A stretch of DNA of 64,000 nucleotides from an uncultured Clostridia bacterium (GTDB lineage Bacteria > Bacillota > Clostridia > Christensenellales > UBA1242): the NCBI GenBank assembly GCA_944362965.1, contig CALVTR010000006.1:27855-91854 (forward strand), in the 5' to 3' direction. The notes beneath the pieces were generated by a model that saw nothing but the letters and a program-made list of their open reading frames with translations, was not told where the DNA came from and did no database searches. The translations under genes and the position numbers were made by a program. The first letter of the stretch is position 1. Each line of letters starts with the position of its first letter. Of this stretch, positions 8,184 through 37,369 are shown one piece after another.

Positions 8184-8388
8184 AATATCTCCTTAAACTA
8201 AAAAAGAGCATTTTCACTCTATGTATATTATATATAATATATTATAAATAAATATAAGGAAAAAAGCAAGTGATTTGACAAATTAGGCGGAGACTTTAAA
8301 AAAATAAAATGCAAATATTGTGAAAGGTTGTCAAAAAACAAAAAATATGGTATAATCAAGCCTAGTATTACATATTTAAGGAATAACT

Positions 8389-9043: not shown

Positions 9044-9604
9044 TTATTTTTTCTTATCAATAAATGCAATATTGTTGTTTTTAAATTTAACAAGATAGTT
9101 TTGATTGATATTTATTTCGCCTTTAAAAAAGATTTTTCCTTGTGATTGCTTTTTGCTCTCAACTTCCAAGTATTCTATGTCATAGAAGTTATAGCCTAAA
9201 ATATTTAAAAGCGGATTGATATAGAAAAGGCAGTTGTTTATGTATACTATGCCAATAAAGATAAGAATTATAATAAAAAGCACAAAGTCGCAAACATAAG
9301 AAACATCAAGTTGCAGGGCAAAAAGCACGAAGAGCGAAAAATATCCAAGAAAATGCCTGTCAGTAATATTTTCTTTTCTTAATATGATTATTTCTTTTGT
9401 TGTGTCCTTGCAATGATAGATATTTATTATAAGCCCAACAATGCCAAGCACAATAAGTATAATCAGCAAAATAATGTTTAGCGTGTTCAGCACATTAAAT
9501 GTAAGGTTGTCATTTATGATGTCAATGATAAGACGAGTTAAAATCAAAAAATACATTGGCACAAAGGCACTTAAATATAAAAATATATCTTTTATAACTT
9601 TCAT
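9044..9604 (-). CDS. Hypothetical polytopic membrane protein
   Basis: 186 aa with about four hydrophobic segments. No family recognised. Confidence 0.45.
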   Translation of the reverse strand: MKVIKDIFLYLSAFVPMYFLILTRLIIDIINDNLTFNVLNTLNIILLIILIVLGIVGLIINIYHCKDTTKEIIILRKENITDRHFLGYFSLFVLFALQLDVSYVCDFVLFIIILIFIGIVYINNCLFYINPLLNILGYNFYDIEYLEVESKKQSQGKIFFKGEININQNYLVKFKNNNIAFIDKKK

Positions 9605-10578: not shown

Positions 10579-10655
10579 CGCGGGATGGAGCAGCTCGGAA
10601 GCTCGTCGGGCTCATAACCCGAAGGTCGTTGGTTCAAATCCAACTCCCGCAACCA
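10579..10655 (+). tRNA. Initiator tRNA-Met (anticodon CAT), CCA encoded
   Basis: CGCGGGATGGAGCAGCTCGGAAGCTCGTCGGGCTCATAACCCGAAGGTCGTTGGTTCAAATCCAACTCCCGCAACCA. C1/A72 mismatch and GGG/CCC in the anticodon stem are initiator hallmarks. Confidence 0.95.
10611..10655 (+). repeat. attL core (element-supplied 3' part of tRNA-fMet)
   Basis: CTCATAACCCGAAGGTCGTTGGTTCAAATCCAACTCCCGCAACCA, identical to 21454-21498. Confidence 0.85.
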
Positions 10656-10774
10656 TTTATTTATAAGGGCTATAGAGATTTTACTGAATATAGAATTATA
10701 CGTTTTGACTCTCAATTTGACTCTCAAAATTTCAGAAGAATTTATATTAAGCCTTTTAGATGACTAGGTTTTGC

Positions 10775-11164
10775 CTAGTCTTTTTCTTTTTCAATCTCAT
10801 ACATTTTATCTAAAGTATACTTGAATAATTTTTTATATACACCTTTAGATGCATCCATACAATTATTTAATTTAAGTTTTAATTTATCCCATTTACTATC
10901 TGCATTATTATCTTTATATTTTTGACTCTTAGTCATACGAGCTAATATTGGCATTACATATACTTGCAATTTTATATCATTATTCAATAATTCTTTGCTA
11001 GTAAAAGGGCATATTCCGTTATGCTCAAGATAGAACAACAATGCTTGTAAATATTCCATACGTTTTTTCTCTTTAGCAATCTTTGCCTCTAGAGCATAAA
11101 TAATACCACAAGAATTTGAAATTGCCTTATCAATATCTTCTATATCAATATATTTATTTTTCAT
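10775..11164 (-). CDS. Hypothetical protein (element)
   Basis: I prefer the start at MKNKYIDIEDI (ATG 11164), which has an AAAGGAAAGG RBS; the track start 11209 would overlap rep. No family recognised. Confidence 0.5.
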   Translation of the reverse strand: MKNKYIDIEDIDKAISNSCGIIYALEAKIAKEKKRMEYLQALLFYLEHNGICPFTSKELLNNDIKLQVYVMPILARMTKSQKYKDNNADSKWDKLKLKLNNCMDASKGVYKKLFKYTLDKMYEIEKEKD

Positions 11165-11180
11165 TTTTTCACCTTTCCTT

Positions 11181-12260
11181 TTAAAATGGCAAATCATCAT
11201 TATTGCCACTATACAAAGTAAGTTCTATTTGCTCTGCTTGTTTATTGTATCTATCAAAAACTATTTTTGCTCTTCCGTATTTGTCATACTCAAGCACTTG
11301 TTTAATACGTTTTTTACGACCATAAGGTTTTTGCTCACTCTGTGGTATATCTTCATATATAGTTTCACGTTCCACAAATATATCAGTAGGGGAGTTTATA
11401 CGTATAACTTTACTTAAACGTCTAACAAAGCCGTTATATTGACTTATATTCTCTTCCTGTTCTTGCTTATATAACTCTTTATAGTGAAAGTTAGATATTA
11501 TATAAACTTTTGTAAAACAAGCCTGTCCTAGAAAGTTAAGCCCACGAAGTTTAACTGGTAAAAAGTCAAGCAAACGGTTCATAAACTGTATATTGAATTG
11601 ACCAACGCCTTTAAACTCATCTATGACTAATATATCTTCACCTGCATAGCCTGTAAATGCTGAATTATCAAACGTATCAACATAGAAATAGTTTTCATTA
11701 CGTATTAGGTCACGAACATAAGTTGTTTTGCCTGAACCACTAGGTCCATATATGTATATCACTTCAACGTCACGTTCTTGCTTTTTAAAAAGCTCAGATT
11801 TTTTAAGTGTTCTTAATTTATCAAGCTTATTAAATTCTTTTAAAAATAAGCTAGGGTATAATTCACGAAGTTGTAAATCACTTGCACCGCTATCAATCAA
11901 TTCATAGAAATCTTTTAAATCAGTTCTTTCGCCTTTCTCAGTAAATGTGCCATCTTCATAAGGTCCTGATATACGTGTTTCAGTTTTAGAGCAATAATCA
12001 CGGCATTGAATATTTGAGCCTTGTGCTTTTTCAATATGGGCAGTAGGGAAGTATCCTTTAATAGTGCTAAAACGTTTACTAATAGTAAAAACTATATATA
12101 TTTGAAAATGAATAGTTCCTTTTTCTTCGCCTTTTTCACGTTGAAAGATGTAATATTTAAAATGCTCTAAATTCTTTAAATAATTTTGCATTTCTTCGTC
12201 TGTTTCTTTAGGGTTATTTATTGTTAAAACCCATCTACGTGCTTGTGAATTTTCTTCCAT
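11181..12260 (-). CDS. rep: Rolling-circle replication initiator, circovirus/CRESS-type HUH endonuclease fused to an SF3 helicase
   Basis: 359 aa with ordered motifs: RRWVLTINNP (motif I), GTIHFQIYIVF (motif II, HUH-type), DYCSK (motif III, catalytic Tyr), GPSGSGKT (Walker A), LVIDEF (Walker B), YIISNF (motif C). Confidence 0.85.
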   Translation of the reverse strand: MEENSQARRWVLTINNPKETDEEMQNYLKNLEHFKYYIFQREKGEEKGTIHFQIYIVFTISKRFSTIKGYFPTAHIEKAQGSNIQCRDYCSKTETRISGPYEDGTFTEKGERTDLKDFYELIDSGASDLQLRELYPSLFLKEFNKLDKLRTLKKSELFKKQERDVEVIYIYGPSGSGKTTYVRDLIRNENYFYVDTFDNSAFTGYAGEDILVIDEFKGVGQFNIQFMNRLLDFLPVKLRGLNFLGQACFTKVYIISNFHYKELYKQEQEENISQYNGFVRRLSKVIRINSPTDIFVERETIYEDIPQSEQKPYGRKKRIKQVLEYDKYGRAKIVFDRYNKQAEQIELTLYSGNNDDLPF

Positions 12261-12293
12261 GATATACTCCTATTTATATCAAGACTTTGACGC

Positions 12294-12399
12294 GCGTCAA
12301 GGTATGCGTCAAGATGCGTCAAGGTTAAATTAAAAAATTAAAATGCTATAAGCCTTTATTTATAAGGTTTTTTGATTTTTAGGCGTCAATGCGTCAAGG
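12294..12399 (-). repeat. Iterons GCGTCAA(G/T), five copies, between the origin stem-loop and the rep start
   Basis: Copies at 12294-12302, 12306-13, 12316-24, 12383-90 and 12391-99. The last copy forms part of the stem. Confidence 0.7.
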
Positions 12400-12432
12400 T
12401 TCAAGGGTAATACTAACCTTGAACCTTGTCGC
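12391..12432 (-). promoter_or_regulatory. Putative rolling-circle origin: stem-loop presenting the nonanucleotide TAGTATTAC
   Basis: Stem 12395-12406 CAAGGTTCAAGG pairs with 12417-12428 CCTTGAACCTTG, extendable to 16 bp with one mismatch. Loop 12407-12416 GTAATACTAA reads TTAGTATTAC on the rep (minus) strand. Confidence 0.75.
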
Positions 12433-12660
12433 GTATCCAACTTGTTGGGCTTGGCGAGCCATCGCCCAACAAGTCAAGTTGTATCGAAGAAACAACCTTC
12501 TCATGCGGATTTTTAAAACTTGGGCTCTGCCCAAACCCGCCAATACTCTAGAGTATTGGATGAGCTTTCTTCGCTCGACCGCTAGGCAACTCCGGAACGG
12601 GTGTTCCGAAGCAGGGCAAGTATGAGCGAAGTGACCCGCTTGTCAAGTAAAAATTTGCAT
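12433..12660. other. GC-rich hairpin cluster (candidate complementary-strand origin or packaging signal)
   Basis: CTTGTTGGGC (12441-50) / GCCCAACAAG (12464-73). Outer stem CGAAGAAA (12485-92) / TTTCTTCG (12566-73) encloses TTGGGC-tct-GCCCAA (12520-34) and the 20-nt perfect palindrome CCAATACTCTAGAGTATTGG (12540-59). CGGAAC-gggt-GTTCCG at 12593-12608. Confidence 0.5.
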
Positions 12661-12670
12661 TTATCTCCCG

Positions 12671-13045
12671 TTAGGCATAAACGACAAATTTTTTCTTGAC
12701 AAGCTGCTGTATCTCTTCGATTGAGTTCTTTGCTAGTATACACCTTTTATTTTTCTTCAGAAGTCCGCAAAAAGCTTCTTCTTGCGGAACTTCTGATTTT
12801 TCTGATTGTTTCTTCATGGCTTTCAGCCACAGTTGTTTCCTTCGATACAATGAAGGTATTTTATTGAGTTGACGTCGCATATCTTTCCAGACATATTTAC
12901 GAAATCTTTTTAAATGCTTATTATCTATAAAGTCCTCAGTATCTAAAGTAAGAGCAAAAGTTGCTGAATATTGACTAAAAACCTTTTGCAACAACTTATT
13001 CCTAGTAAAATCTAATTTTGGTTCTTCTTGTATTTTCTGAAACAT
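12671..13045 (-). CDS. Hypothetical basic protein (element)
   Basis: 124 aa. Its start overlaps the stop of the upstream ATPase gene (TAATG). No family recognised. Confidence 0.5.
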   Translation of the reverse strand: MFQKIQEEPKLDFTRNKLLQKVFSQYSATFALTLDTEDFIDNKHLKRFRKYVWKDMRRQLNKIPSLYRRKQLWLKAMKKQSEKSEVPQEEAFCGLLKKNKRCILAKNSIEEIQQLVKKKFVVYA

Positions 13046-13863
13046 TATGCCGCCTTCCTTTTTTGATAGAAATTATCAGGAAGTTCGTCGTCAACTTCCT
13101 TGAGATATTTAACCACAGCTTCAAAGTTATCGTCCGTAGGTTCTGCATATTTTAAATCAAAGTCTTCATCTAAATGACCTTCATAGAATTTAGGCTTGCA
13201 ATTTTGACTGTCGTATAAGGCAAAAACGTTATAATCAGCAACAACAGTCTCTTCAGTATAACAAGTTTTATCTTTCTTACCACTAGCCATATATCTATCA
13301 AATAAAGCACTATTATCAATATGTCTTATAGTCCAAGTAAGCTTGTCAACCTTGCCATTTTCATTTTTATGTATATTTAATTTAGCGATTTCAATAAAAC
13401 TAGCAAGTTCCCGGATATTCACGTCTATAAGCATAGGACGTTGAGTATCGAGAAATATATCTATGTTGTCATGACCATGCTGTTCATACCAACGTGATTG
13501 CCAGTCAGGGAAATACATGCTCATTCTTGAATTAAGATATTTTTGTGCTTCAGTGATACCGATAACTTCATAGGGCAGGTTAAAGTGTGTTTTGACATAA
13601 TTATTTGCGAAGCCTAATCTAAAAGGATTAATACGCCTAGAATAACGACGACTATACCCAAACTTTTTAAATGCAATATCATAATTTGCTGCCACACAAT
13701 GGGTAGGTATTGTTTTTATGTTTTTAAAACCATTAAGCTTTTTATAAAGAACTTCACGCTGCATAGCTCTATTACGCACTTTATCATAAGCATAAGTATT
13801 TAATATATGGGTCAAAAAACAAGTTTTCCCTGTTCTTGGTGGAGCAAATATTATTGTTATCAT
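13045..13863 (-). CDS. Zot/pI-like P-loop ATPase (filamentous-phage assembly ATPase family)
   Basis: MITIIFAPPRTGKT (Walker A), VIGITEAQ (Walker B-like), EQHGHDNIDIFLDTQRPMLIDVNIRELA (Zot-type HRH-G-D-ii-TQ block). I prefer ATG 13863 with an AAGGAAA RBS; the track begins at TTG 13884. No C-terminal TM segment is seen. Confidence 0.65.
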   Translation of the reverse strand: MITIIFAPPRTGKTCFLTHILNTYAYDKVRNRAMQREVLYKKLNGFKNIKTIPTHCVAANYDIAFKKFGYSRRYSRRINPFRLGFANNYVKTHFNLPYEVIGITEAQKYLNSRMSMYFPDWQSRWYEQHGHDNIDIFLDTQRPMLIDVNIRELASFIEIAKLNIHKNENGKVDKLTWTIRHIDNSALFDRYMASGKKDKTCYTEETVVADYNVFALYDSQNCKPKFYEGHLDEDFDLKYAEPTDDNFEAVVKYLKEVDDELPDNFYQKRKAA

Positions 13864-13877
13864 TTTATTTATTTTCC

Positions 13878-13979
13878 TTGACAAATTTATTTTTTTAGCA
13901 TATACTAATTATGTCAAGATTTTGACAGCGCAGTTTATTCTGCGACAGGTATGAACGGAATATTTTTCCGTTCTTTTTT
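13878..13979 (+). ncRNA. Candidate short plus-strand (antisense) transcript: consensus promoter plus intrinsic terminator
   Basis: TTGACA (13878-83), 17-nt spacer, TATACT (13901-06). Hairpin GAACGGAA (13953-60) / TTCCGTTC (13966-73) followed by T6. Predicted RNA of ~65 nt. No expression data. Confidence 0.25.
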
Positions 13980-14397
13980 ATTTTCTACCTTTTAACTTTC
14001 TAACTCTCATTCTATTTGACTTAGAATTTTTAGAAGTCTTAAATAAAATTCTCTTTATTTGAGATATTTCATTTTTATTAAAATCATAAGAACTTTTATT
14101 TTCTAAAAAATACTTATTTCTCTTTATTGGCTTATTTCTAAAATCACGAGTTTCAACAAAAGGTTTTATTTTTGATTTGCCTTGTCTATATGTTTTTATA
14201 GGAATGCCTTTATTAGACATAGTAAGCTTAACAACTGCTAGTTCGTTATTCCTATTACTATCAACAACTACAACTCGTCTATAATAACCTTTTACGTTAG
14301 GTTTTCTATAATTTTCAGCGCCATAGAAATAATTATCTTTTGTTTGAAAAGTTCTTCCATTAGGTATCTTTATAGATATATTTTTCTTTCTTGACAT
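13978..14397 (-). CDS. Highly basic hypothetical protein (possible nucleic-acid-binding or structural protein)
   Basis: 139 aa, K/R-rich throughout. No family recognised. Confidence 0.5.
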   Translation of the reverse strand: MSRKKNISIKIPNGRTFQTKDNYFYGAENYRKPNVKGYYRRVVVVDSNRNNELAVVKLTMSNKGIPIKTYRQGKSKIKPFVETRDFRNKPIKRNKYFLENKSSYDFNKNEISQIKRILFKTSKNSKSNRMRVRKLKGRK

Positions 14398-14467
14398 ATT
14401 AGCTCCATTAAAAGCTTAAAAATAAAGGCAAAAATATATCTTGCCTTTATTTTTGCTTAAGTATTAT

Positions 14468-14686
14468 TTATTTAGTTTCTTGCTTAGGTTCATCGTCAAT
14501 TACAAGGCCAAGTCTAAGCAAGTTATCAGTTGATGGGAAAAACATAATTTCTTTACCATTTTTTCCCTTAACTTTGAAGCATGCATAAGGCTTTCCACTG
14601 TCTTTGCCGACACCTTCAAATACTTCCATGCTCTCAACTACTGATTTTAATTCTTTTGCTAAATTTTCTCTTTTAATAATTTTCAT
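14468..14686 (-). CDS. Small hypothetical protein (element)
   Basis: I prefer the start MKIIKRENL (ATG 14686) preceded by AAAAAAGGAGAAAAGG. 72 aa. Confidence 0.45.
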   Translation of the reverse strand: MKIIKRENLAKELKSVVESMEVFEGVGKDSGKPYACFKVKGKNGKEIMFFPSTDNLLRLGLVIDDEPKQETK

Positions 14687-14830
14687 TTTCCTTTTCTCCT
14701 TTTTTATTATTTGATTACTTACTTCAGGGCCCTTTGAAATAAGTATCTGGTGAAGCAAGAGCAATAGGAGAGAAATACTCTTGCAACTGGTAGCAGGTTA
14801 CTTTTAAATTGTTGTAGCCTGCATAAACAA

Positions 14831-15043
14831 TCAATTTTCTATAGCAGATATAACAAGTGCTTTCTTAATACGTTTATACTCACTGCCTGTCCAAAAGATA
14901 TAGTAAAATTCAGTGGAACGACAAAACATAACATGCTTAATAATTTCTTTTATCTTATCAAATGAATTATTCCACTTGATTTTTATAGACCTTTCATAAG
15001 TTACGTCATAATATCGACCTAAAAGAAAACTAAATTTTTCCAT
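14831..15043 (-). CDS. Small hypothetical protein (element)
   Basis: 70 aa, tightly packed after the LRR gene. Confidence 0.4.
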   Translation of the reverse strand: MEKFSFLLGRYYDVTYERSIKIKWNNSFDKIKEIIKHVMFCRSTEFYYIFWTGSEYKRIKKALVISAIEN

Positions 15044-15045
15044 AA

Positions 15046-16089
15046 TTAAATACCCATTTCAACATTAGACAAAATAAGGTCAGTCACGTTGACACCGTAA
15101 ATGTTAGAGCCATAATTAGTAGTAAAATAATCGATATATGATTGATACATAGTCTCTGGAACATATACATAGTCAATTAAACTATTTAAATATGCATCAT
15201 AAAAATCAACTATTTGCGTTTCATTTGAAATGATAAGATTATGTATAGTTGAACCTAAAAACGCAGTAGAAGATAGCTCTATAACATTTTCAGGTAAAAC
15301 AAGTGACGTCATTTCTAAAGTATAATATGCACCATCTATTGCAGTTACTGTTGATGGTATAGTTGTGTTGCTGCAAGCTACAACCAAAGTATTTGTTGCA
15401 GTTTCAATAATAGCATTGCAGTTTTCTCTGCTATCATAAACAGAATTATCAAGTGATACTACTATTGTTTCAAGTGAAAGGCCACTTCCAATCACTACTT
15501 CTCCAATACTTGTCACACTTGATGGAATATATAGCTCTAACAAACTATCACAATTTAGAAAAGCTCTGCTGCCTATAGTCTCTAAACCTTCATTTAAAAT
15601 AACACTTTCAAGATTAAAACACGTATCAAAAGCATTATTTTCAAGTTCGACAATAGTAGTTGGCAATATTACTGATTTTAGTGTTTCTGAATAATTAAAA
15701 ATATTTTCACCTATAACTGTCACTTGATAGTCATCACCTTCAATAAAGTTGCCTTCGTCATCGATTGAATATGAAGAAGGAAGTTCAACATAAGCATCAT
15801 TACCAAAATAACGAACTATTTTATTCTCATAAAACTCATAGTCAGAAACATTGCAAACATAAGTTATTTTTCCCGGTTCGTCAGTTTCTCCTGTATCTTC
15901 ACTTGGCTCTTCTGGCTCTTCAGTTTCTCCTGTATCTTCGCTAGGATTATCTTCATCCGGTTGTATAGTCTCTTCTTCAGCTATGCCAAACCAAGTATTG
16001 ACTATACTAGGCTCAATTAAGTAGGTTATACCAACACCTGCTACTAAAATTAGAATTAAAGAAAATATAATTAAATAAGCTTTTTTCAT
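15046..16089 (-). CDS. Membrane-anchored BspA-type leucine-rich-repeat surface protein
   Basis: N-terminal TM (MKKAYLIIFSLILILVAGVGITYLI), acidic PEDTGETEEP repeats, then LRR_5-like repeats (IGENIFNYSETLKSVILP, LENNAFDTCFNLESVIL, IGSRAFLNCDSLLELYIPSSVTSIG). Confidence 0.65.
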   Translation of the reverse strand: MKKAYLIIFSLILILVAGVGITYLIEPSIVNTWFGIAEEETIQPDEDNPSEDTGETEEPEEPSEDTGETDEPGKITYVCNVSDYEFYENKIVRYFGNDAYVELPSSYSIDDEGNFIEGDDYQVTVIGENIFNYSETLKSVILPTTIVELENNAFDTCFNLESVILNEGLETIGSRAFLNCDSLLELYIPSSVTSIGEVVIGSGLSLETIVVSLDNSVYDSRENCNAIIETATNTLVVACSNTTIPSTVTAIDGAYYTLEMTSLVLPENVIELSSTAFLGSTIHNLIISNETQIVDFYDAYLNSLIDYVYVPETMYQSYIDYFTTNYGSNIYGVNVTDLILSNVEMGI

Positions 16090-17504
16090 TCTACCACCTC
16101 AACTTTTAACATGCCGGCATTTATAGTATCCCAAGCAAGCAAATCAATCGTTCCGTCACTATTTATGCCGAAAGAGAAATTAAACAAAATATCATTATAC
16201 GTTTCATTTATGTAATAAATATTTGAATTTGATTTTTCAAAAGTAAATGTTTGTTCATCGTTATATGTAAGAGTTATCACTCCGTCTATTTCACTAAGTG
16301 TGGCTGACCAAACTTCACGATTAAAACCATCAGTTCGAATTAGTGTCCAAACATTTGAATTAAGAGTAGTAATATACTCAACTTCTTCAGTTGAAATAAT
16401 ATCTACAGAATATGTATCTACGTCAATGTTCGGATAAGACATATACCAAAAATTAGTCATTGTCATACTGCCATTAGCAAAGGTATATTCGACCTTAAAA
16501 TATGTTTCTGCATCTTCAACTTCAAGTAAATTTAAATAATTTTCTTGAATAAAACTTGTTGGAATATTAACCGTAACAATGTTGTCTTCTATAGTAGAAA
16601 AATTTGTTAAAGATTCAGATATATCTATAAAATTAGTTAAATCTGAATTTAAAATTTCAATGCTATTTATAGTAGAACCTGTTATATTCATATAAGAATT
16701 AATAACAGGATAAGTCTCTCCGCTTGTATTTGCTGAAGAATAATAAGTTCTAACTGCAGCATTTACATTGTATGTCTCAGTTGTCTCTTCAAAGACTGCG
16801 TAAAGAGTGGTATCATTAGGGAAGAAATATCCTTGAAGCTCAATAGGTGTAGAGCCGTCAAGTGACCAACCTGTAAAGTTATAACCTATAAGCTTAGGGT
16901 CTTCTACATAGTGGTCAAATGAGCTATCAGCACTTGTAACTACTACGTCGTAATTATTATCATTTACTTTAAATGTAACTATACTTTGTCCTTCAAAGTT
17001 ATATGACGCAACAAGCTCTTCATAATATGTAACTGTATCTTCTAACGTTGAAACCGTGCTTTGAAGAGTAGATACTTGGCTTTCTAAAGTTGAAATAGTA
17101 TCTGCATATTCCGTTACCAAATCTTCGCTATCTTCTAAGTCAGATTGAAGCTGCGCTATCTGAGATTGCAAGCTTGAAATAGTAGTGTTTAAACCTTCAA
17201 TAGTTGATTGAAGCTCAGATATAGTTTCTTGTAAGTCTGCAATAGTTTCTGCATCTGATGCTGTTTGCTCATCTTTGCTGTCAAGCTGAAATTCTAATTC
17301 AACAATGTTGCCTTGCAAATTTTCAACTTGTATAATTAAATTATCTATTGTAGTTTCAAGCTGTGTTATATATGCTTGCGTATCTTGGCTATTCAATTCT
17401 TGATATTTATCATTGACATTTTTATACATTATGCCAAAGACAATACCGCAAATATCACCTGCCATAAACAATATAATCATTAAATAACCTAAAAATTTCT
17501 TCAT
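16086..17504 (-). CDS. Membrane-anchored coiled-coil protein with a Listeria-Bacteroides-type repeat
   Basis: N-terminal TM, heptad-like LQS/LES repeats (aa ~40-165), then GYNFTGWSLDG...TTLYAVF. ATGA overlap with the downstream gene. Confidence 0.55.
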   Translation of the reverse strand: MKKFLGYLMIILFMAGDICGIVFGIMYKNVNDKYQELNSQDTQAYITQLETTIDNLIIQVENLQGNIVELEFQLDSKDEQTASDAETIADLQETISELQSTIEGLNTTISSLQSQIAQLQSDLEDSEDLVTEYADTISTLESQVSTLQSTVSTLEDTVTYYEELVASYNFEGQSIVTFKVNDNNYDVVVTSADSSFDHYVEDPKLIGYNFTGWSLDGSTPIELQGYFFPNDTTLYAVFEETTETYNVNAAVRTYYSSANTSGETYPVINSYMNITGSTINSIEILNSDLTNFIDISESLTNFSTIEDNIVTVNIPTSFIQENYLNLLEVEDAETYFKVEYTFANGSMTMTNFWYMSYPNIDVDTYSVDIISTEEVEYITTLNSNVWTLIRTDGFNREVWSATLSEIDGVITLTYNDEQTFTFEKSNSNIYYINETYNDILFNFSFGINSDGTIDLLAWDTINAGMLKVEVVE

Positions 17505-17515
17505 GTTTTTTCTCC

Positions 17516-18853
17516 TTAACTATCTCTAAATAGTTCGAACGGCTTTTTGATAAGCCACCATAAACCTTTTAAAAAATAACAAAAACCTAAACATATGTAT
17601 TTTATAACCATTACAATAACTTTAAATATTAAAGGTAAAACACTTGGTGCTAAAATTGCAATTACTGCGATTATTGCTATAGTGACAACTATACCAACAA
17701 TAGATGATATCAATTTATCTAACCAATTTTCATTATCAGGCTTATTGTCACCTGTTTGTTTGTTATCAACAACTCCCAAATTATAAGTAATACCATCATT
17801 TTCAAACGTTAATTCTAAAATCGTAATATTTTCAACTTTTGTCCAATAAGTTAATACTGCTCCTACCAAAGGCGAAATAGTAAATTCTGTTTCAGTGAAT
17901 CTCAAAACCCAGTCTTTGCTTTTTACAGCATCTTCAATTTCTTCTTTTAAATCTACGGATTCTACAAACTCATTTGAGCTTTGTATTCGTTCCCAAGAAT
18001 ATTTCTTTACAAACACAGCTCCAGAACTAACACTAGCAACATCTGTATAATTTAAATTTATTGAGATAGGATCAGAGTATTCTCCGTTTATATTCTCGTT
18101 TAACATTGGAACTGTTATATATTCAACTTTGGCTGAAAGTAACTTATCAATTGGCTTATCTGTCGAAAATGCTACATATTGGCTATCACAAGCATTTGGA
18201 TCAAGAAAAAATCCACTTTCATATCTAATAAACCCTATATATTTATCAACTATATTTATTGTATCAGTAGTTATATATGCGTAATAGACTTTTCCATCAA
18301 CAGTCATGCAAGTCCATTCCTGACCAACCTTATAAGAACATTCACTTATTGTATTCCCTGTATTTTCTTCAGGTAATTCATCAACTCCATCTATAAATTT
18401 ACGAAATATTGATGAAATAACATAATATCTAACAGAATTTTGTTCAACAGTTAAATCATCAACCTTATATTTTTGTAAAGCACCCGAAGAATTTATATAT
18501 GTTAAAGTATAATTATTAAAATCTAAATTATTATCAATTCCTTTTGAAATATTTATACTAGTTGCATATTTTATAGCACTAGGCTGATAAACATAGATAA
18601 ACAATTCTTTATCTTCACTTTCAGCTATTTGAATTACTTGTAAAGAATAATTGTCAGAAATAATAGGGTAATTATCAATGCTAAAATTTTCATCTTTTTG
18701 CAAATCGTCAAGAACATTTGAATATTCAGTTTCTGCTGCGTAAACGTTAGTTGTTGCCGACGACATAGGCAGTAAAGAAAAAAGACAGAGTATAAGCATG
18801 AAAAAATACGCTAAATCAAATATTTTAAATTTACTTTTATTTTTCCTTGTCAT
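17516..18853 (-). CDS. Secreted protein with C-terminal membrane anchors (candidate adsorption or spike protein)
   Basis: 445 aa. Signal peptide ending TNVYA/AETEY, large ectodomain, two or three C-terminal TM helices. Confidence 0.5.
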   Translation of the reverse strand: MTRKNKSKFKIFDLAYFFMLILCLFSLLPMSSATTNVYAAETEYSNVLDDLQKDENFSIDNYPIISDNYSLQVIQIAESEDKELFIYVYQPSAIKYATSINISKGIDNNLDFNNYTLTYINSSGALQKYKVDDLTVEQNSVRYYVISSIFRKFIDGVDELPEENTGNTISECSYKVGQEWTCMTVDGKVYYAYITTDTINIVDKYIGFIRYESGFFLDPNACDSQYVAFSTDKPIDKLLSAKVEYITVPMLNENINGEYSDPISINLNYTDVASVSSGAVFVKKYSWERIQSSNEFVESVDLKEEIEDAVKSKDWVLRFTETEFTISPLVGAVLTYWTKVENITILELTFENDGITYNLGVVDNKQTGDNKPDNENWLDKLISSIVGIVVTIAIIAVIAILAPSVLPLIFKVIVMVIKYICLGFCYFLKGLWWLIKKPFELFRDS

Positions 18854-18905
18854 ATATTCCGCTCCTTCTCTGTCATCTTTCTTTATTGGCTATGGATTTT
18901 TAAAT

Positions 18906-19199
18906 TTAAGCTACAATCACTACATTTGAATAATTGTTAGCTATGTTTTGAAGGTCAACAACTTCAACTTCGTCATCTTCTGTGATATCTGTTTCAGTAT
19001 CAGCTTGCTCTTCATCATTTACTGTATCGTCAGTGTCATCAATAACTTCTTCAACTTCAGTTCCCCATGATTTCCACTCATCAACTAGTGAGCGGTCATT
19101 AACTGAAGCCATAACTAAAGAAGTCACAATGAAAACTAAAGCTACAAAAATGACAAAGCATACTATTGATGAGATTGCTATCTTTGTTTTTTTAGACAT
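18906..19199 (-). CDS. Small protein with an N-terminal signal/anchor and an acidic C-terminal part
   Basis: 97 aa: MSKKTKIAISSIVCFVIFVALVFIVTSLVMA, then a D/E/T-rich region. Confidence 0.5.
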   Translation of the reverse strand: MSKKTKIAISSIVCFVIFVALVFIVTSLVMASVNDRSLVDEWKSWGTEVEEVIDDTDDTVNDEEQADTETDITEDDEVEVVDLQNIANNYSNVVIVA

Positions 19200-19214
19200 T
19201 GCTCTTTGCTCCTT

Positions 19215-19466
19215 TTATTTAGATTTTTTCTTTTTGCAATTCGACTTATATGCTTTTGCATTGTCAGATCTTGCTGTTAGGTAACCGCTACGATATGCCT
19301 TTTGTGTGTCAGTTAAACGAATAGGTTTGCCATATTTATTTTTCTTGACAACATGATCATTGGTTGCATGAATACCTTTCTTAAGTTCTGCAGCATATTT
19401 GCGACCTTTTTCAGCAGGGTTTAACAAAGTTACTTTCTTACCACGTCTATTTGTTACAACTCTCAT
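19215..19466 (-). CDS. Small basic hypothetical protein
   Basis: 83 aa, K/R-rich. Overlaps the upstream ORF by 20 nt. Confidence 0.45.
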   Translation of the reverse strand: MRVVTNRRGKKVTLLNPAEKGRKYAAELKKGIHATNDHVVKKNKYGKPIRLTDTQKAYRSGYLTARSDNAKAYKSNCKKKKSK

Positions 19467-19686
19467 TTCTTACTCCTTTTAACCCATCGGCTACACCTTT
19501 ATCAAAAATTTGAATAAACTCATTTGCTGATATCAACATTTCAGTCCATTCGTTTTTGCAACGATAATAGACACGATAGGCAATATTAAAAGTATTAAGT
19601 GCGTTAATCTTAGGCTTTAACTCTTCAATGCCGTTGCACTCATAAATTTTGTTGTTCGACACAATCATAAACTCTTTTTCTTCCAT
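19447..19686 (-). CDS. Small hypothetical protein, first gene of the leftward operon
   Basis: 79 aa with an AAAGGAG RBS. Divergent from the XRE repressor gene. Confidence 0.45.
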   Translation of the reverse strand: MEEKEFMIVSNNKIYECNGIEELKPKINALNTFNIAYRVYYRCKNEWTEMLISANEFIQIFDKGVADGLKGVRNESCNK

Positions 19687-19700
19687 TTTAAACTCCTTTT

Positions 19701-19769
19701 TAGTTAATTTTTAACTATTCATACTTATATTATATTCAAATATAGAATAATGTCAACTAAATTTTAGTT
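19701..19769. promoter_or_regulatory. Candidate operator palindromes in the divergent switch region
   Basis: TAGTTAAtttTTAACTA (19701-19717) and AACTAAAtTTTAGTT (19755-19769), between the leftward operon and the XRE gene. Confidence 0.4.
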
Positions 19770-19825
19770 ACTTATTGAATATTTTTTAAAAAAATTTATA
19801 ATGTTATAAATAAAAGGAGTTAAAC

Positions 19826-20140
19826 ATGAAAATAAAAGAACTAAGACAACAATTAAACAAAACACAAGAAGAAATAGCAAAAATATTAAACATTTCACAA
19901 AGTAATTATAGCAAGTATGAACGAAATGAAATTGAGCCAGATATTAAAACACTAAAAAAAATAGCCGACTACTTTGACGTCAGCTTAGATTTCTTGTGCG
20001 GGAGACCAAGACCTTATGATTTACCTTCCACAACAACTTCAGGACAAAAAGAAGCAATAAATTTAATATTGCAACTAAATGAAATCAACACTATAAAAGC
20101 AATCTCATATTGTGCCGGGTTACTTGCAGGGCAAAACTAA
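19826..20140 (+). CDS. XRE-family helix-turn-helix repressor
   Basis: LRQQLNKTQEEIAKILNISQSNYSKYERNEIEPDIKTLKKIADYFDVSLDFLCG is a classic HTH_3 domain. Confidence 0.8.
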   Translation: MKIKELRQQLNKTQEEIAKILNISQSNYSKYERNEIEPDIKTLKKIADYFDVSLDFLCGRPRPYDLPSTTTSGQKEAINLILQLNEINTIKAISYCAGLLAGQN

Positions 20141-20309
20141 CTCGGCACTATAACTCATAATTTCTAATCAATCAAAAGAAAACTACTTAAAGGAGAAATT
20201 ATGAATAAAAAAATTATTGAAACTTTTTTAAAATATAAGCATTCAACAAAACAAACTACTAGAACAAGCAACAAATTGTAATATTGCAATAACAGAATTT
20301 TTAAAAGGC

Positions 20310-21362
20310 TTGATAGATTCTTCTGAAATAGATACTGAAATAAAAGGAGATATTTATCAAGATATGAAATATAAAGGACATAAAATTGAAAAACGAAAAG
20401 ACGGAAGATGGCAAGCACGAATAAGAGAAAACGGGAAACAACATTTTGTTTATGCAAAATCTCAAATTGAGTGCTTGAATAAATTAAAAGAATTATACAA
20501 AGACAAACCAAAACTTATAAAACCGCAAATGAAACTTTTTGAAGCTTGGGAATATTGGTATAACAAATATAAAAAACCCTTAATAAGAGAAGATACCTTA
20601 AAAAACATTCGTAGCGTTTTCAAAAATCAATTATCAATTCTTTTAGAAAATAAAAATTTAAAAGATATAAATTCATTAGATTTTAACCTTGCTATAAAAA
20701 AAATAAATAAACCTAGAATGAAAGAATATGCTTCACAATATATTAAAGATTTTTTAAAATCACTTTACAAAGAAAAACTAATCAAGTATGACATTACTGA
20801 TGAAATAAAATCATATCATAGCCCAAGAAAAGAAGGTAATTCACTCACAATCGAACAAAGAAAAATCTTAGTTGAAAAATCATATTTAATAGAAAACGGG
20901 GAGATGTTTAGATTTTATTTATTTTCAGGAGTCAGGCCAGCTGAAATATTTTTAATAAAAGATACTGATATTGAAAAAGAGTTTATACATATACCAGGAA
21001 CAAAAACGGAAAAATCAGATCGTTATATACCAAGATTTAAACAATTAGACGAAGTACTAGAGAAGTTGAAAGACATAAAAGGACCACTTTTCAAAATTAG
21101 CGAAACAACTAGAAAAAGACGAATTTATGAATTAAGACAATTATGCGGTTTTCACTTTAATGTGAAAGATTTACGAACAACATTTGCAACAATGTGTGCA
21201 GAGAATGGAGTTCAACAAAATGTTATTGCAAAATGGCTAGGACATACTAACGTTACAACTACAAATAAATATTATATTAAAGTTCTAAATGACTATGAGC
21301 GAGAGCAAATAAAGAATTTAGAACATAAAATTGACTCTCAAATTGACTCTCAAAACTGCTAA
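20310..21362 (+). CDS. int: Tyrosine-type site-specific integrase
   Basis: N-terminal arm-binding-like KRKDGRWQARIRENGKQ. Catalytic region has GVRPAE (Arg), DLRTTFAT (Arg), WLGHTNVTTTNKYY (His, Tyr). Start is uncertain: TTG 20310 or ATG 20367. Confidence 0.85.
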   Translation: MIDSSEIDTEIKGDIYQDMKYKGHKIEKRKDGRWQARIRENGKQHFVYAKSQIECLNKLKELYKDKPKLIKPQMKLFEAWEYWYNKYKKPLIREDTLKNIRSVFKNQLSILLENKNLKDINSLDFNLAIKKINKPRMKEYASQYIKDFLKSLYKEKLIKYDITDEIKSYHSPRKEGNSLTIEQRKILVEKSYLIENGEMFRFYLFSGVRPAEIFLIKDTDIEKEFIHIPGTKTEKSDRYIPRFKQLDEVLEKLKDIKGPLFKISETTRKRRIYELRQLCGFHFNVKDLRTTFATMCAENGVQQNVIAKWLGHTNVTTTNKYYIKVLNDYEREQIKNLEHKIDSQIDSQNC

Positions 21363-21453
21363 AAAACGGGGAAATGGCAAAAATAAAACACTATATAAAG
21401 TGTCTTTAAATTTAAAAATACTTATATATAGTGTTTTTGCCATTAAAACCGCT

Positions 21454-21498
21454 CTCATAACCCGAAGGTCGTTGGTTCAAATCCAACTCCCGCAACCA
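21454..21498 (+). repeat. attR core (displaced original 3' part of tRNA-fMet)
   Basis: 45 nt identical to 10611-10655. Confidence 0.85.
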
Positions 21499-21892
21499 TG
21501 AAAAAGGTTGGGCAATATGCCCAACTTTTTTATTGTGGCAAAAAAGTTAATTTACGACCTTCGGGTTATATCGAGCATTTTAAATTTTTTTTTCATAAGA
21601 ATAAATAAACAAAAAGCACGGCTGAATAAATAGACAAAATAGACGCGAGATATAATCTCGTTTTCGGTCGTTGGTTCAAATCCAACTCCCGCAACCATAA
21701 AAAGTTGGGCGTTTTGCCCAGCTTTTTTATTGCGGCAAAAAAGTTAATTTACGACCTTCGGGTTATATCGAGCATTTTAAATTTTTTTCATAAGAATAAA
21801 TAAACAAAAAGCACGGCTGAATAAATAGACAAAATAGACGCGAGATATAATCTCGTTTTCGGTCGTTGGTTCAAATCCAACTCCCGCAACCA
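21499..21892 (+). repeat. Two ~195-bp tandem units, each ending in a 32-nt tRNA-fMet 3'-end fragment
   Basis: GGTCGTTGGTTCAAATCCAACTCCCGCAACCA at 21666-21697 and 21861-21892. Each unit also holds a terminator-like hairpin and an inverted anticodon-arm fragment TTACGACCTTCGGGTTAT (21552-69, 21749-66). Confidence 0.8.
21507..21531 (+). terminator. Displaced native tRNA terminator
   Basis: GTTGGGC-aatat-GCCCAAC followed by T6, immediately after the attR tRNA fragment. Confidence 0.6.
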
Positions 21893-21958
21893 TAAAAAGT
21901 TGGGCGTTTTGCCCAGCTTTTTTATTTAATAAAAAGCGGACTTGTATAGCCCGCCTAT

Positions 21959-37089: not shown

Positions 37090-37369
37090 ATATATCTCCC
37101 TATAAAATATATTTAATATATATAATGATATCATTATAAAAGCCATTTGTCAAGAAATATGGTATCAATATTGCCTTGCAAATTTAAGAGCAGGGCAATA
37201 TTACTTTGTCAGTGTTTACCATTCAAAAAATTTTAATTAATAGAAAACAAACAAAAATTAAATAAATTTCAGAAAAAACATAAAAATCAAGTTTAAAAAA
37301 GTTTAATATAAAATATACAAAACACAATAATTAATTAAAAAAGCATGAAACAAAGTTCATGCCTTTTCG

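Follow-up and report, generated by a model that had tools for sequence, protein, structure and literature searches.

The window, that is, the whole stretch of 64,000 nucleotides that was analysed, contains an element of about 10.8 kb (approximately 10657-21499) inserted in the tRNA-Met gene of an uncultured Clostridia-like bacterium, on a host scaffold of 201 kb with gyrB next door. The original prediction had described a CRESS-virus-style replication origin as a feature of the chromosome; the att repeats place it instead within an integrated mobile element at tRNA-Met, whose genes and borders are as follows.

10579-10655, plus strand: tRNA-Met (CAU), the integration target (ARAGORN, Rfam)
10611-10656, plus strand: attL, the 3' 46 nt of tRNA-Met, a direct repeat identical at 46/46 positions to 21454-21499
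10775-11209, minus strand: small ORF downstream of rep, 129-144 aa, with homologues in two related loci
11181-12260, minus strand: Rep, 359 aa, HUH-superfamily endonuclease plus SF3 helicase (Pfam, homologue motifs, structure-profile match)
12671-13045, minus strand: basic ORF of 124 aa without family match, invariably between the Zot-like gene and the origin region
13045-13884, minus strand: Zot-like P-loop ATPase of the inovirus pI N-domain family (PHROG_197, 2R2A profile, synteny)
13978-19686, minus strand: remaining sense-strand genes (o139, o72/98, o70, BspA-LRR, coiled-coil/Flg_new, o445, o97, o83, o79)
15046-16089, minus strand: BspA-LRR protein, with an N-terminal transmembrane (TM) segment or signal
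16086-17504, minus strand: coiled-coil/Flg_new protein, with an N-terminal TM segment
17516-18853, minus strand: o445, with a signal and a C-terminal TM anchor
19826-20140, plus strand: XRE/cI-like HTH repressor (PHROG_8, 7.5e-24), divergent from the sense-strand genes
20310-21362, plus strand: tyrosine integrase (PF00589, 1.9e-11; PHROG_1, 3.5e-43)
21454-21499, plus strand: attR, a 46-nt duplicate of the tRNA-Met 3' end, followed by the native tRNA terminator hairpin (21502-21531)

Degenerate att copies are also present to the right of the element. At the nucleotide level, only the tRNA fragment of the element matched deposited phages. A search for the excised circle with a pattern joining the att core to the left end gave no match in two collections (viral and metagenome contigs), and contigs of 9-12.6 kb with close Reps had no terminal overlap. 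L035 alone among the relatives looks circular; its 55-nt overlap, however, lies within a tRNA-like att core and is ambiguous, because an integrated copy could give rise to a de Bruijn loop there. The att core of the window's tRNA-Met was absent from all 13 relatives checked (longest exact match 12 nt), which are therefore evidently integrated elsewhere.

The rep gene starts with an ATG at 12260-12258 on the minus strand. That its product is, from end to end, a circovirus/nanovirus-like Rep is borne out by matches to the Pfam families Viral_Rep (PF02407, 4.4e-15) and SF3 helicase (PF00910, 4.2e-9), by PCV2 Rep as the closest solved structure (7LAR; 2.3e-37 by profile, 4.1e-26 by single sequence), and by conserved motifs I (LTINNP, residues 12-17), II (HFQ, 51-53, of the HUQ type) and III (YCSK, 89-92), Walker A (172-179), Walker B (214-215) and the motif C asparagine (Asn257). 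The motif residues are invariant across 22 homologues, and Tyr89 is the presumed nucleophile. The protein is about 30% identical to CRESS-virus Reps; its relatives are located in genomes of Clostridia and other Bacillota, and an identical Rep occurs on three contigs from at least two independent samples. Among plasmids, p4M (30% identity) is the sole real match, accompanied by one weak one. The small ORF downstream of rep gave weak, sub-threshold matches to late-transcription regulators and nothing else.

All genes of the element bar the repressor and the integrase lie on the minus strand. The Zot-like ATPase probably starts at the ATG at 13863, giving 272 aa. It matches PHROG_197 (5.3e-10) and scores 19.1 bits against Pfam Zot, under the cut-off of 20.3, the same family being matched in 8 of 10 syntenic homologues; against 2R2A, the single sequence scores 5.6e-4 and a family profile 9.5e-15. 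No TM segment was detected in this protein, as no 19-residue window reaches a Kyte-Doolittle value of 1.6. With tblastn, 37 loci have a Zot-like gene on the rep strand, about 1.6 kb upstream of rep; a profile search places one there in 48 of 79 loci. The order Zot, ORF of about 125 aa, origin, Rep is strictly syntenic in 37 loci. Repressor homologues occupy the same position in 24 loci, and 17-19 related loci have counterparts of o445 and of the coiled-coil protein. The element has four membrane or secreted proteins, and its o139 and o83 products are very basic. No major coat protein was recognised among its ORFs, and none of its proteins matched a capsid family in Pfam or PHROGs. The only small ORF that is preceded by a ribosome-binding site (RBS) and has a TM-like segment is o97, whose signal-like N-terminus and strongly acidic tail are atypical of the small, single-TM major coat protein of inoviruses. 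Of the 15 proteins searched, nine had no family match at the default thresholds of the libraries.

The intergenic region upstream of rep

The region between rep and the 124-aa ORF has the following features, listed from the rep side.

12267-12300, minus strand: putative promoter and RBS of rep, identified by visual inspection
12286-12323, plus strand: proximal iteron cluster (inverted copy 12286-12293; direct copies 12294-12301, 12306-12313 and 12316-12323)
12324-12382, no strand: AT-rich spacer between the iteron groups, with a conserved block at 12345-12367 (GCTATAAGCCTTTATTTATAAGG)
12383-12398, plus strand: distal tandem iteron pair, GCGTCAAT and GCGTCAAG, of 8-nt period, the second copy lying in the stem
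12391-12432, minus strand: predicted nick-site hairpin of the probable plus-strand (double-strand) origin (direct read, fold, family conservation)
12433-12710, minus strand: hairpin-rich, GC-enriched block (ssDNA fold, comparison across 44 loci)
12440-12474, minus strand: 'Hairpin 2', whose GC-rich stem of 11 bp closes the loop GATGGCTCGCCAA; in rep orientation it lies 5' of the nick hairpin, at a distance of 11 nt

The nick hairpin lies in intergenic DNA, 135-172 nt upstream of the rep ATG. Its arms, CAAGGTTCAAGG (12395-12406) and CCTTGAACCTTG (12417-12428), pair perfectly over 12 bp, and the extension (12391-12394 with 12429-12432) adds three pairs and one T-T mismatch, for a total of 15 pairs over 16 positions. 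The loop (12407-12416) is GTAATACTAA and reads TTAGTATTAC on the minus strand, where the nonanucleotide TAGTATTAC runs from T1 at 12415 to C9 at 12407, in rep sense. Direct reading confirms to the base both the stem and the 10-nt loop of the original prediction, with the nonanucleotide on the rep-coding strand. Folded as ssDNA, the hairpin reaches -16 kcal/mol (z = -7.0), and 0 of 200 shuffles were equally stable. Taken alone, TAGTATTAC is at chance level in the window (2 matches against 0.58 expected; 10 of 100 shuffles reach 2); the second copy, at 8363, was rejected as an origin and attributed to chance, since it lies in an ordinary promoter/5'-UTR context and has no inverted repeat. The nick is predicted between T7 (12409) and A8 (12408), TAGTATT/AC, presumably at the position established by circovirus and nanovirus biochemistry.

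Five repeats had been reported between the stem-loop and the rep start codon, the last of them in the stem. All five are there, GCGTCAAG at 12294, 12306, 12316 and 12391 and GCGTCAAT at 12383, with the copy at 12391-12398 overlapping the stem. Two copies can be added to them: a sixth, inverted copy, TTTGACGC at 12286-12293, which gives the palindrome TTTGACGC-GCGTCAAG, and a degenerate inverted iteron, GCGACAAG, in the opposite stem arm (minus strand, 12432-12425). The window has 10 copies of the motif GCGTCAAK where 2.08 are expected (0 of 100 shuffles reach 10), and five of the copies fall within 105 nt. The proximal direct iterons are spaced 12 and 10 nt apart and read CTTGACGC in rep orientation. 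They adjoin a putative rep promoter, with a -35 box TTGACG (12300-12295) that falls within the proximal iteron palindrome, a 16-nt spacer, a -10 box TATAAA (12278-12273) and an RBS AGGAG (12271-12267); TATAAATAGGAGTAT from this promoter/RBS region is kept in relatives. The promoter was not called by a scanner that demands T at position 6 of the -10 box. The order of hairpin, tandem iterons, second iteron group and rep agrees with the circovirus layout that had been proposed.

The block 5' of the nick hairpin contains hairpins at 12440-12474, 12540-12559, 12590-12611 (nested in 12569-12631) and 12638-12704, and folds as ssDNA at -66 kcal/mol (z = -9.1 for the minus strand, -8.5 for the plus strand). 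Across 44 loci, this side has a mean z of -5.9, versus -1.7 on the iteron side, and a GC content of 0.44, versus 0.34 in adjacent genes: the structured 5' block is a family trait. Hairpin 2 is found in 9 of 9 close relatives, where the stems are unrelated but share a loop motif, GGCT(n)GCC or GCC(nn)GGC, and in 30% of 44 HUQ loci versus 3.1% of 767 control windows. A known RNA family in the GC-rich block was rejected (no Rfam match at gathering thresholds), as was the reading of the hairpins as intrinsic terminators (no T-run follows), and no known sso consensus was detected in the block. Position 12433-12710 would be the best candidate for a complementary-strand origin and/or packaging signal, and Hairpin 2, as a second conserved hairpin, may have a role in complementary-strand priming or packaging.

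Conservation and Rep/iteron co-variation across relatives

Homologous elements carry a nonanucleotide stem-loop at the same position, with covarying stems, as the original prediction required. Of 75 homologous loci, 53 have the motif AGTATTAC on the rep strand, as part of a hairpin loop not more than 700 nt upstream of rep, and NNTATTAC variants were found in a further 11 (64/75 together); no hairpin was detected within the same 700 nt in 11 loci. Elsewhere in the homologous loci the motif occurs in a hairpin 4 times in 2.36 Mb, or 0.0012 per 730 nt, a family-level control by which a chance origin was rejected. The 83 distinct hairpins include all four Watson-Crick pairs at each stem position from 1 to 10, and the loop bases left free by the search hardly vary (T in 67/83, A in 81/83, G in 77/83, closing C in 81/83).

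The layout around the hairpin is constant in relatives: hairpin, 8-nt tandem iterons, AT-rich spacer, proximal iterons, RBS, ATG. The tandem pair of 8-nt period abuts the hairpin throughout the HUQ clade, and a spacer of 40-70 nt is found family-wide, its columns AAATAAAGG and ATAG being invariant in six relatives. The proximal cluster is alike in position and copy number, and its sequence shifts in concert.

Comparison of iterons with their Reps had been suggested as a check on the origin, and co-variation is indeed present. Among Reps 77-91% identical to that of the window, all iteron copies switch jointly between TTGACGC and TYGTCGC, and the remainder of the origin stays alignable across the switch. 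Rep residue 61, which lies just past motif II and aligns with the second Lys of VKKQTF in PCV2 Rep, is Ser with GACGC iterons and Gly with GTCGC or GTAAC. Ser61 accompanies GACGC in 6/6 lineages, a modest number counted without regard to their kinship. In a blind prediction, two further Ser61 Reps were expected to have GACGC iterons, and both did.

These matched Rep/iteron pairs, one base and one residue apart, form a natural series that offers a handle on CRESS-type origin recognition. Structural information on how CRESS Reps recognise the double-stranded origin was described as lacking in a structural review (Tarasova and Khayat, 2021). We tentatively consider it possible, while leaning against it, that this Clostridia-borne family is the closest prokaryotic counterpart of the circovirus/nanovirus/smacovirus replication module, with a HUQ/YCSK Rep, a full cis-acting origin, and residue 61 reading one iteron base. 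If true, it would provide a bacterial, genetically tractable system for studying that recognition. The family-wide origin anatomy and the link between residue 61 and the iterons appear to be new.

A candidate rolling-circle origin and its alternatives

Because of the hairpin/iteron anatomy, its conservation, the stem covariation, the Rep/iteron co-variation, the integration and the Zot synteny, the stem-loop and repeats are very probably the plus-strand (double-strand) rolling-circle origin of the integrative, Rep-encoding element of about 10.8 kb. The original interpretation is supported, and each of its parts that could be examined computationally held up. The locus combines the features of a CRESS-type origin: a hairpin-borne loop, an intergenic site in rep sense, iterons, a cognate Rep and iteron co-variation.

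A mechanism can be proposed from this arrangement. The tyrosine integrase would excise the element as a dsDNA circle, as the perfect 46-nt att repeats suggest. Rep would bind the GCGTCAAG iterons, of which one tandem pair adjoins the hairpin and runs into its 3' arm; the second cluster, 60 nt away, overlaps the putative rep promoter, and Rep therefore probably also represses its own gene. Upon extrusion of the hairpin, the HUQ endonuclease of Rep would cut TAGTATT/AC on the gene-sense (window minus) strand and become linked through Tyr89. With the SF3 helicase domain unwinding the DNA, a host polymerase would then extend the 3'-OH in the direction of the iterons and rep, and after one round Rep would cleave and rejoin the regenerated origin, releasing a circular sense-strand ssDNA. 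The block at 12433-12710, just 5' of the nick, would be displaced last, in line with its candidate role. The ssDNA could either return to dsDNA or be exported by the Zot-type ATPase and the membrane proteins of the element, which would make the element a filamentous-phage-like prophage. The earlier proposal that the minus strand is the displaced or packaged one would fit, judging from the position of all non-lysogeny genes on the nonanucleotide strand. The filamentous virion would be the weakest step, because no ORF resembling a major coat protein was recognised and the Zot-like protein has no TM segment.

The same two points would suit an integrated rolling-circle plasmid of the pCRESS kind, which would share the origin and mechanism without a virion and use its Zot-like and membrane proteins for transfer, exclusion or surface functions. 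Kazlauskas et al. read integrated Rep elements, in which they detected no known viral structural proteins, as plasmids (PMC6668415), and the nine proteins without family match agree with such a reading. We nevertheless regard a plasmid as unlikely. It has to accommodate strict synteny of Zot, the ORF of about 125 aa, the origin and Rep in 37 loci, an order of Zot, intergenic region and Rep common to complete circular genomes filed under Inoviridae, and an o445 protein whose signal peptide and C-terminal anchor are typical of a pIII-like adsorption protein. To our knowledge, Zot-family ATPases are a signature of filamentous phages, and one is encoded here. The absence of the FtsK-like ATPase and SSB that mark pCRESS1-3 also argues against it, as do the capsid-like genes of inovirus type that Tisza et al. 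(PMC7000223) found in genomes that have a CRESS Rep and prophage relatives.

The other two alternatives concern the origin itself. It could be a disused fossil in a decaying, domesticated relic: neither a circular form nor an empty site was found among viral and metagenome contigs, and the degenerate att copies on the right-hand side of the element indicate that decay occurs at the locus. Intact ORFs throughout, att repeats identical at 46/46 positions, a perfect hairpin and the identical Rep on three contigs from at least two independent samples make this improbable, as does the evolution of iterons in concert with Rep, which requires the Rep-origin interaction to be still under selection in the family. 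Far less probable still, to the point of being hardly credible, is that the hairpin and repeats merely control transcription, as operator or terminator of rep and of the operon upstream. The hairpin does lie between two transcription units, and the proximal repeats do overlap a plausible rep promoter, but an operator role for these repeats is compatible with the rolling-circle origin and already part of it, while a purely transcriptional role would leave unexplained both the near-invariant loop TAGTATTAC across Reps 30-40% identical, whose stems are free to change, and the fact that this loop is identical to the site cut by homologous viral Reps.

Relation to circoviruses, plasmids and inoviruses

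The rolling-circle origin proposed here closely resembles those of circoviruses (PCV1/PCV2, elk, avian), where the repeats also form two groups beside the stem-loop. Its stem of 12 bp (16 positions when extended) compares with 11-19 bp in circoviruses, and circovirus Rep and the element Rep have the same HUQ motif II and YCSK motif III. In contrast, the repeats here are 7-8-mers (GCGTCAAG) with an 8-nt period, and not the hexamer CGGCAG; an AT-rich spacer of about 60 nt parts the two groups; a hairpin-rich block of about 280 nt flanks the nick hairpin; and the whole belongs to a 10.8-kb integrative bacterial element without a jelly-roll capsid gene. Cressdnaviricota have small circular ssDNA genomes with Rep and capsid and eukaryotic hosts, whereas this element of about 10.8 kb is integrated in the tRNA-Met gene of a bacterium and has gyrB as a neighbour on its 201-kb scaffold. 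In Gram-positive rolling-circle plasmids and the Ff intergenic region, a nick-site hairpin likewise stands beside initiator-binding repeats, a structured single-strand origin lies just upstream of the nick and is displaced last, and the displaced or packaged strand is the mRNA-sense strand; unlike in these systems, the initiator family and nick sequence are here of the eukaryotic CRESS type. The window origin has its first repeat within the stem and an inverted copy on the opposite arm, as do the circoviruses of elk, raven, starling and finch (PMC7659335).

The pCRESS elements have a CRESS-like Rep in a bacterial element with a tyrosine recombinase, att repeats and, often, a tRNA site (PMC6668415), all of which are found here. 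The HUQ motif II and motif C Asn of the element Rep match the description of pCRESS3 at the level of motifs; the pCRESS type plasmid p4M is 30% identical. Its motifs are unlike those of the Clostridia-associated pCRESS2 (HTH, YxxKEG, FEEF). Host class and gene content also differ, with a Zot-like ATPase instead of the FtsK-like ATPase and SSB, for which no match was found among the element's proteins. Neither a nonanucleotide nor iterons are mentioned for pCRESS elements in the main text and supplements of that study (PMC6668415).

CRESS-type Reps in integrated bacterial elements and inoviruses are already published and deposited, and the novelty of the element is limited in that respect. CRESS Reps occur with inovirus genes, and with prophage relatives, in ctbe30 and ctbc27 (Tisza 2020, PMC7000223), and an inovirus Rep family with an S3H domain, iPF_00203, has been described (Roux 2019, PMC6813254). 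Like the element, iPF_00203, ctbe30, ctbc27 and the 'bajarodino viruses' combine a Zot-type ATPase with an S3H-domain Rep in 6-12 kb, and CRESS-Rep inoviruses have prophage forms in Clostridia-type genomes. Judged as an inovirus, the element has the appropriate size (10.8 kb, within 5-15 kb), genes essentially on one strand, a replication initiator and a pI-like (Zot family) ATPase, the window protein alone scoring just under the Pfam cut-off; it departs from inoviruses in that their pI-like protein has 1-2 TM domains (PMC6813254), and its Zot-like protein has none. Our literature searches found nothing on 'bajarodino' or on TAGTATTAC in prophages, and the Rep type of the Enterocloster inoviruses is not stated in the paper on those phages.

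Until now, the basis for the evolutionary link proposed between bacterial Rep elements and eukaryotic CRESS-DNA viruses has been the Rep protein. Conservation is here seen to extend to the cis-acting signals, namely the nonanucleotide, a loop of similar length and iterons placed in and beside the stem, and they recur across two bacterial Rep clades and deposited circular inovirus genomes. They suggest an annotation rule for such prophages, in which locating the hairpin would give the origin and the packaged strand. The deposited genomes are those of the bajarodino viruses (GenBank PQ006121-PQ006184), complete, circular, filed under Inoviridae and with the same order of Zot, intergenic region and Rep. 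Their Reps are 32-34% identical to the element Rep and belong to the HUH/Y(V/I)xK (pCRESS2-like) clade; an N-terminal hydrophobic segment is present in 2 of 4 aligned bajarodino Zots, and absent from that of the window. In Bajarodino virus 13, a hairpin with CTAGTATTAC is followed by TGTCGA iterons, and the 5' block is again GC-rich.

A circovirus-type Rep within an element at tRNA-Met

The ORF at 11181-12260 (minus strand) encodes a Rep matching Pfam Viral_Rep (4e-15) and the SF3 RNA_helicase domain (4e-9). A profile of 22 Rep homologs retrieved the full-length PCV2 Rep 7LAR (2e-37), followed by endonuclease domains of other circovirus and related Reps; motifs I (LTINNP), II (HFQ) and III (YCSK), Walker A and B, and the Asn of motif C are invariant or nearly so among the homologs. 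The original prediction had placed the associated origin in a bacterial chromosome; it lies instead within an element bracketed by tRNA-Met-derived repeats. These enclose about 10.8 kb, with a tyrosine integrase and an XRE repressor at one end on the plus strand. All other element genes lie on the minus strand, among them genes for four products with signal or membrane-anchor segments and for several small basic proteins. The window has a match in a 201-kb metagenome scaffold, where gyrB adjoins the element.

10579-10655: tRNA-Met gene, its last 46 nt exactly duplicated at 21454-21499
13045-13884, minus strand: Zot-like P-loop ATPase

Candidate arm-type recombinase-binding sites, TTGACTCTCAA(A/T)TTGACTCTCAAA, occur just inside both element ends (10703-10728 and 21329-21354), the right copy being contained in the 3'-terminal part of the integrase ORF. 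Beyond attR on the right (21587-21926) are two tandem 195-bp repeats. Both contain an inverted anticodon-arm fragment CGACCTTCGGGTTAT and close with a 33-nt partial copy of the tRNA-Met 3' end (21653-21698, 21848-21893), after which comes a terminator-like hairpin; they resemble remnants of previous integrations at the tRNA-Met site. Directly left of the tRNA, a 186-aa ORF (9044-9604) has a precomputed Pfam match to KwaA, a component of the Kiwa anti-phage defence. Elsewhere in the window are two giant minus-strand ORFs of 2811 aa and 1882 aa (50056-58491 and 31498-37146).

The protein collection contained 247 detectable Rep homologs, and scanning one genome per species yielded 79 Rep loci, nearly all from uncultured Clostridia, Christensenella, Oscillospiraceae and Lachnospiraceae, with a few from Izimaplasma, Paenibacillus and Brevibacillus. 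IMG/VR matches to Rep were CRESS-type contigs of 2-5 kb at ~30% identity. Tabulating motifs separated the bacterial loci into two clades: HUQ/YCSK (49 loci, the window's Rep among them) and HUH/Y(V/I)xK, which agrees with published pCRESS2 sequences and deposited 'bajarodino' inoviruses. Gene order is kept across independent contigs, running from integrase, repressor and small ORFs to two large membrane proteins and more small ORFs, and at the other end from the Zot-like gene through a ~125-aa ORF and the origin to Rep. A same-strand Zot-like homolog lies ~1.6 kb upstream of rep in 37 loci; the Zot profile, which matches the Neisseria Zot N-domain 2R2A at 1e-14, hits 48 of the 79 loci, only five of them from the HUH clade, and Pfam Zot is reached by 8/10 syntenic homologs.

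Three relatives deserve separate mention. L166, a locus whose Rep is 91% identical to the window's, carries just downstream of Rep a second ORF (415 aa, 11251-12498) that has the SF3 helicase domain and no precomputed Viral_Rep match, its 91% identity to Rep extending over 69% of Rep length; it could be a paralogue of Rep whose endonuclease domain was replaced, or a piece of a tandem second element. L035 (USSZ01000030.1, 12,094 nt) is a mosaic, 84% identical to the window in the integrase and 89% in the small element ORF o79, but only 39% in Rep and 29% in Zot; its 55-nt terminal overlap lies inside a tRNA-like sequence, so that the contig may represent either an excised circle or a loop created in assembly. 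L092 (IMGVR_UViG_3300006525_000125, 9,585 nt; 20-nt terminal overlap) is the sole IMG/VR contig combining a related Rep (32% identity) with a Zot-profile match (2e-5).

Architecture of the probable origin in the window and across the family

Direct reading of the window sequence bore out every coordinate originally given for the stem, loop and repeats. The stem arm 12395-12406 (CAAGGTTCAAGG) pairs fully with 12417-12428, and extension to 12391/12432 adds three pairs with one T-T mismatch; on the minus strand the 10-nt loop reads TTAGTATTAC. This predicted nick hairpin is far more stable than shuffled sequences (z = -7.0).

12294, 12306, 12316 and 12391: direct repeat GCGTCAAG (sequence reading)
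12383: repeat variant GCGTCAAT (sequence reading)

A sixth, inverted copy (12286-12293) forms a palindrome with that at 12294, and a degenerate inverted copy, GCGACAAG, sits in the opposite arm of the stem. The repeat occurs 10 times in the 64 kb versus 2.08 expected, five of these within 105 nt. By itself the nonanucleotide is not significant in the window (2 observed versus 0.58 expected); its second copy, at 8363 in a promoter region, is a chance match.

In 75 genomic loci that offered enough sequence, 700 nt upstream of rep were searched on its coding strand. Of these loci, 53 had AGTATTAC within a hairpin loop closed by a perfect stem of 6 bp or more, and 11 others had a NNTATTAC variant, such as CTTACTATTAC in a Christensenella group. 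The original prediction would have been refuted by homologous elements lacking a conserved nonanucleotide-bearing stem-loop here, and the homologs do carry one. The rest of the same loci, on both strands, gave 4 hairpin matches in 2.36 Mb (0.0012 per 730 nt). Across the 83 different hairpins, each of the ten loop-proximal stem positions shows all four Watson-Crick pairs, and loop bases outside the search pattern are near-invariant (T 67/83, A 81/83, G 77/83, closing C 81/83), so that compensatory substitutions preserve the structure and the loop is conserved as sequence. The complete circular genome of Bajarodino virus 13, deposited under Inoviridae, shares this design, with GGAAGTCCGC...CTAGTATTAC...GCGGACTTC and then TGTCGA repeats in its Zot-Rep intergenic region. 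The stem-loop and repeats very probably function as an origin.

Beyond the predicted nick hairpin, away from the iterons, the stretch 12433-12710 forms five or six hairpins when folded (z = -9). The equivalent block in 44 loci is more structured, with a mean z of -5.9, than the iteron side (-1.7), and is GC-enriched (0.44 versus 0.34 in adjacent genes), its sequence being mosaic even among close relatives. Adjoining the predicted nick hairpin is a second hairpin (12440-12474). It occurs in 9/9 close relatives, and 30% of HUQ loci have it versus 3% of controls; relatives' stems are unrelated, and the motif GGCT(n)GCC or GCC(nn)GGC is common to their loops. Related loci with this hairpin include L001, L002, L166, L167, L171, L173, L175 and L176.

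Proposed replication and the question of a virion

By homology, Rep would cut TAGTATT/AC on the minus strand between 12409 and 12408, and synthesis from the nick 3'-OH would proceed in the direction of rep and its iterons. This would displace the sense strand of all non-lysogeny genes, in agreement with the strand originally predicted; in filamentous phages, too, the displaced strand is the gene sense strand. The block 12433-12710, because it would be displaced last, is well placed as a complementary-strand origin, which occupies this position in Gram-positive rolling-circle plasmids and Ff phages; alternatively, it could be a packaging signal. A near-consensus rep promoter discerned by eye (TTGACG, 16 nt, TATAAA, then AGGAG) was not called by the promoter scanner. 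The proximal iteron palindrome overlaps this predicted promoter, which suggests Rep autoregulation, as known for circoviruses.

We lean towards the element making a filamentous virion. The Zot-family ATPase is in strict synteny with origin and Rep, the product of o445 (17516-18853, minus strand) has a pIII-like topology, and deposited circular inovirus genomes carry the same module. CRESS-Rep/inovirus chimeras with prophage relatives have been published (PMC7000223), and one inovirus Rep family has an S3H domain (PMC6813254). Against a virion stand the lack of a transmembrane segment in the element's Zot-like protein, the absence of any recognisable coat-protein-like ORF in the element, and a search for its circular form that found none.

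Iterons and Rep residue 61

CRESS-like Reps in integrated bacterial elements (PMC6668415) and inoviruses with CRESS-type Reps (Roux 2019; Tisza 2020; GenBank records) are already known, and the Pfam family description already names the AGTATTAC nick site. In Kazlauskas 2019 with its supplements, Roux 2019, Tisza 2020 and a full-text search on TAGTATTAC in prophages, we found no description of the conserved origin architecture across such bacterial elements, of a Clostridia HUQ/YCSK, Zot-linked clade as such, of the second conserved hairpin, or of the residue-61/iteron correlation.

Read in the direction of rep, the family shows a constant arrangement: first the hairpin, then a tandem pair of iterons with an 8-nt period (the first within the 3' arm), an AT-rich spacer of 40-70 nt that includes the conserved block AAATAAAGG...ATAG, another two to four iterons, RBS and ATG. 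Iteron sequences differ by lineage (TTGACGC, YGTCGCA, CGTAACAT, TTGTAACAT, TGCGTAACA). Among the loci of six Reps 77-100% identical to the window's, all iterons of an element swap jointly between TTGACGC and TYGTCGC, with the remainder of the origin still alignable. The sole endonuclease-domain residue tracking this switch is position 61, in FTI(S/G)KRFSTIK, eight residues past the Gln of motif II. Within the I(S/G)KRF subfamily, Ser61 accompanies GACGC in the window, L001, L002 and L011, and Gly61 accompanies GTCGC or GTAAC in all other cases; GACGC iterons, predicted in advance for two more Ser61 Reps (P0014, P0016), were found in both. The iteron/Rep co-variation that the original prediction had proposed looking for is thus observed.

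In PCV2 Rep, the residue aligned with position 61 is the second Lys of VKKQTF. Such a location would fit comparative work that puts the specificity determinants of eukaryotic ssDNA viruses beside the RCR motifs. A recent structural review (PMC8780604) notes a lack of structural information on how ori is recognised. We consider this co-variation the result most worth pursuing.

Two groups depart from the common layout. Five loci with motif I WVGTWNNP (L016, L018, L022, L023, L035) keep a long-stemmed TAGTATTAC hairpin with no adjoining tandem iterons, and this subgroup may use a different mode of origin recognition. In Christensenella MAGs (L038-L046, L050), the loop is CTTACTATTAC in place of TAGTATTAC, and the adjoining tandem repeats have a 7-nt rather than an 8-nt period.
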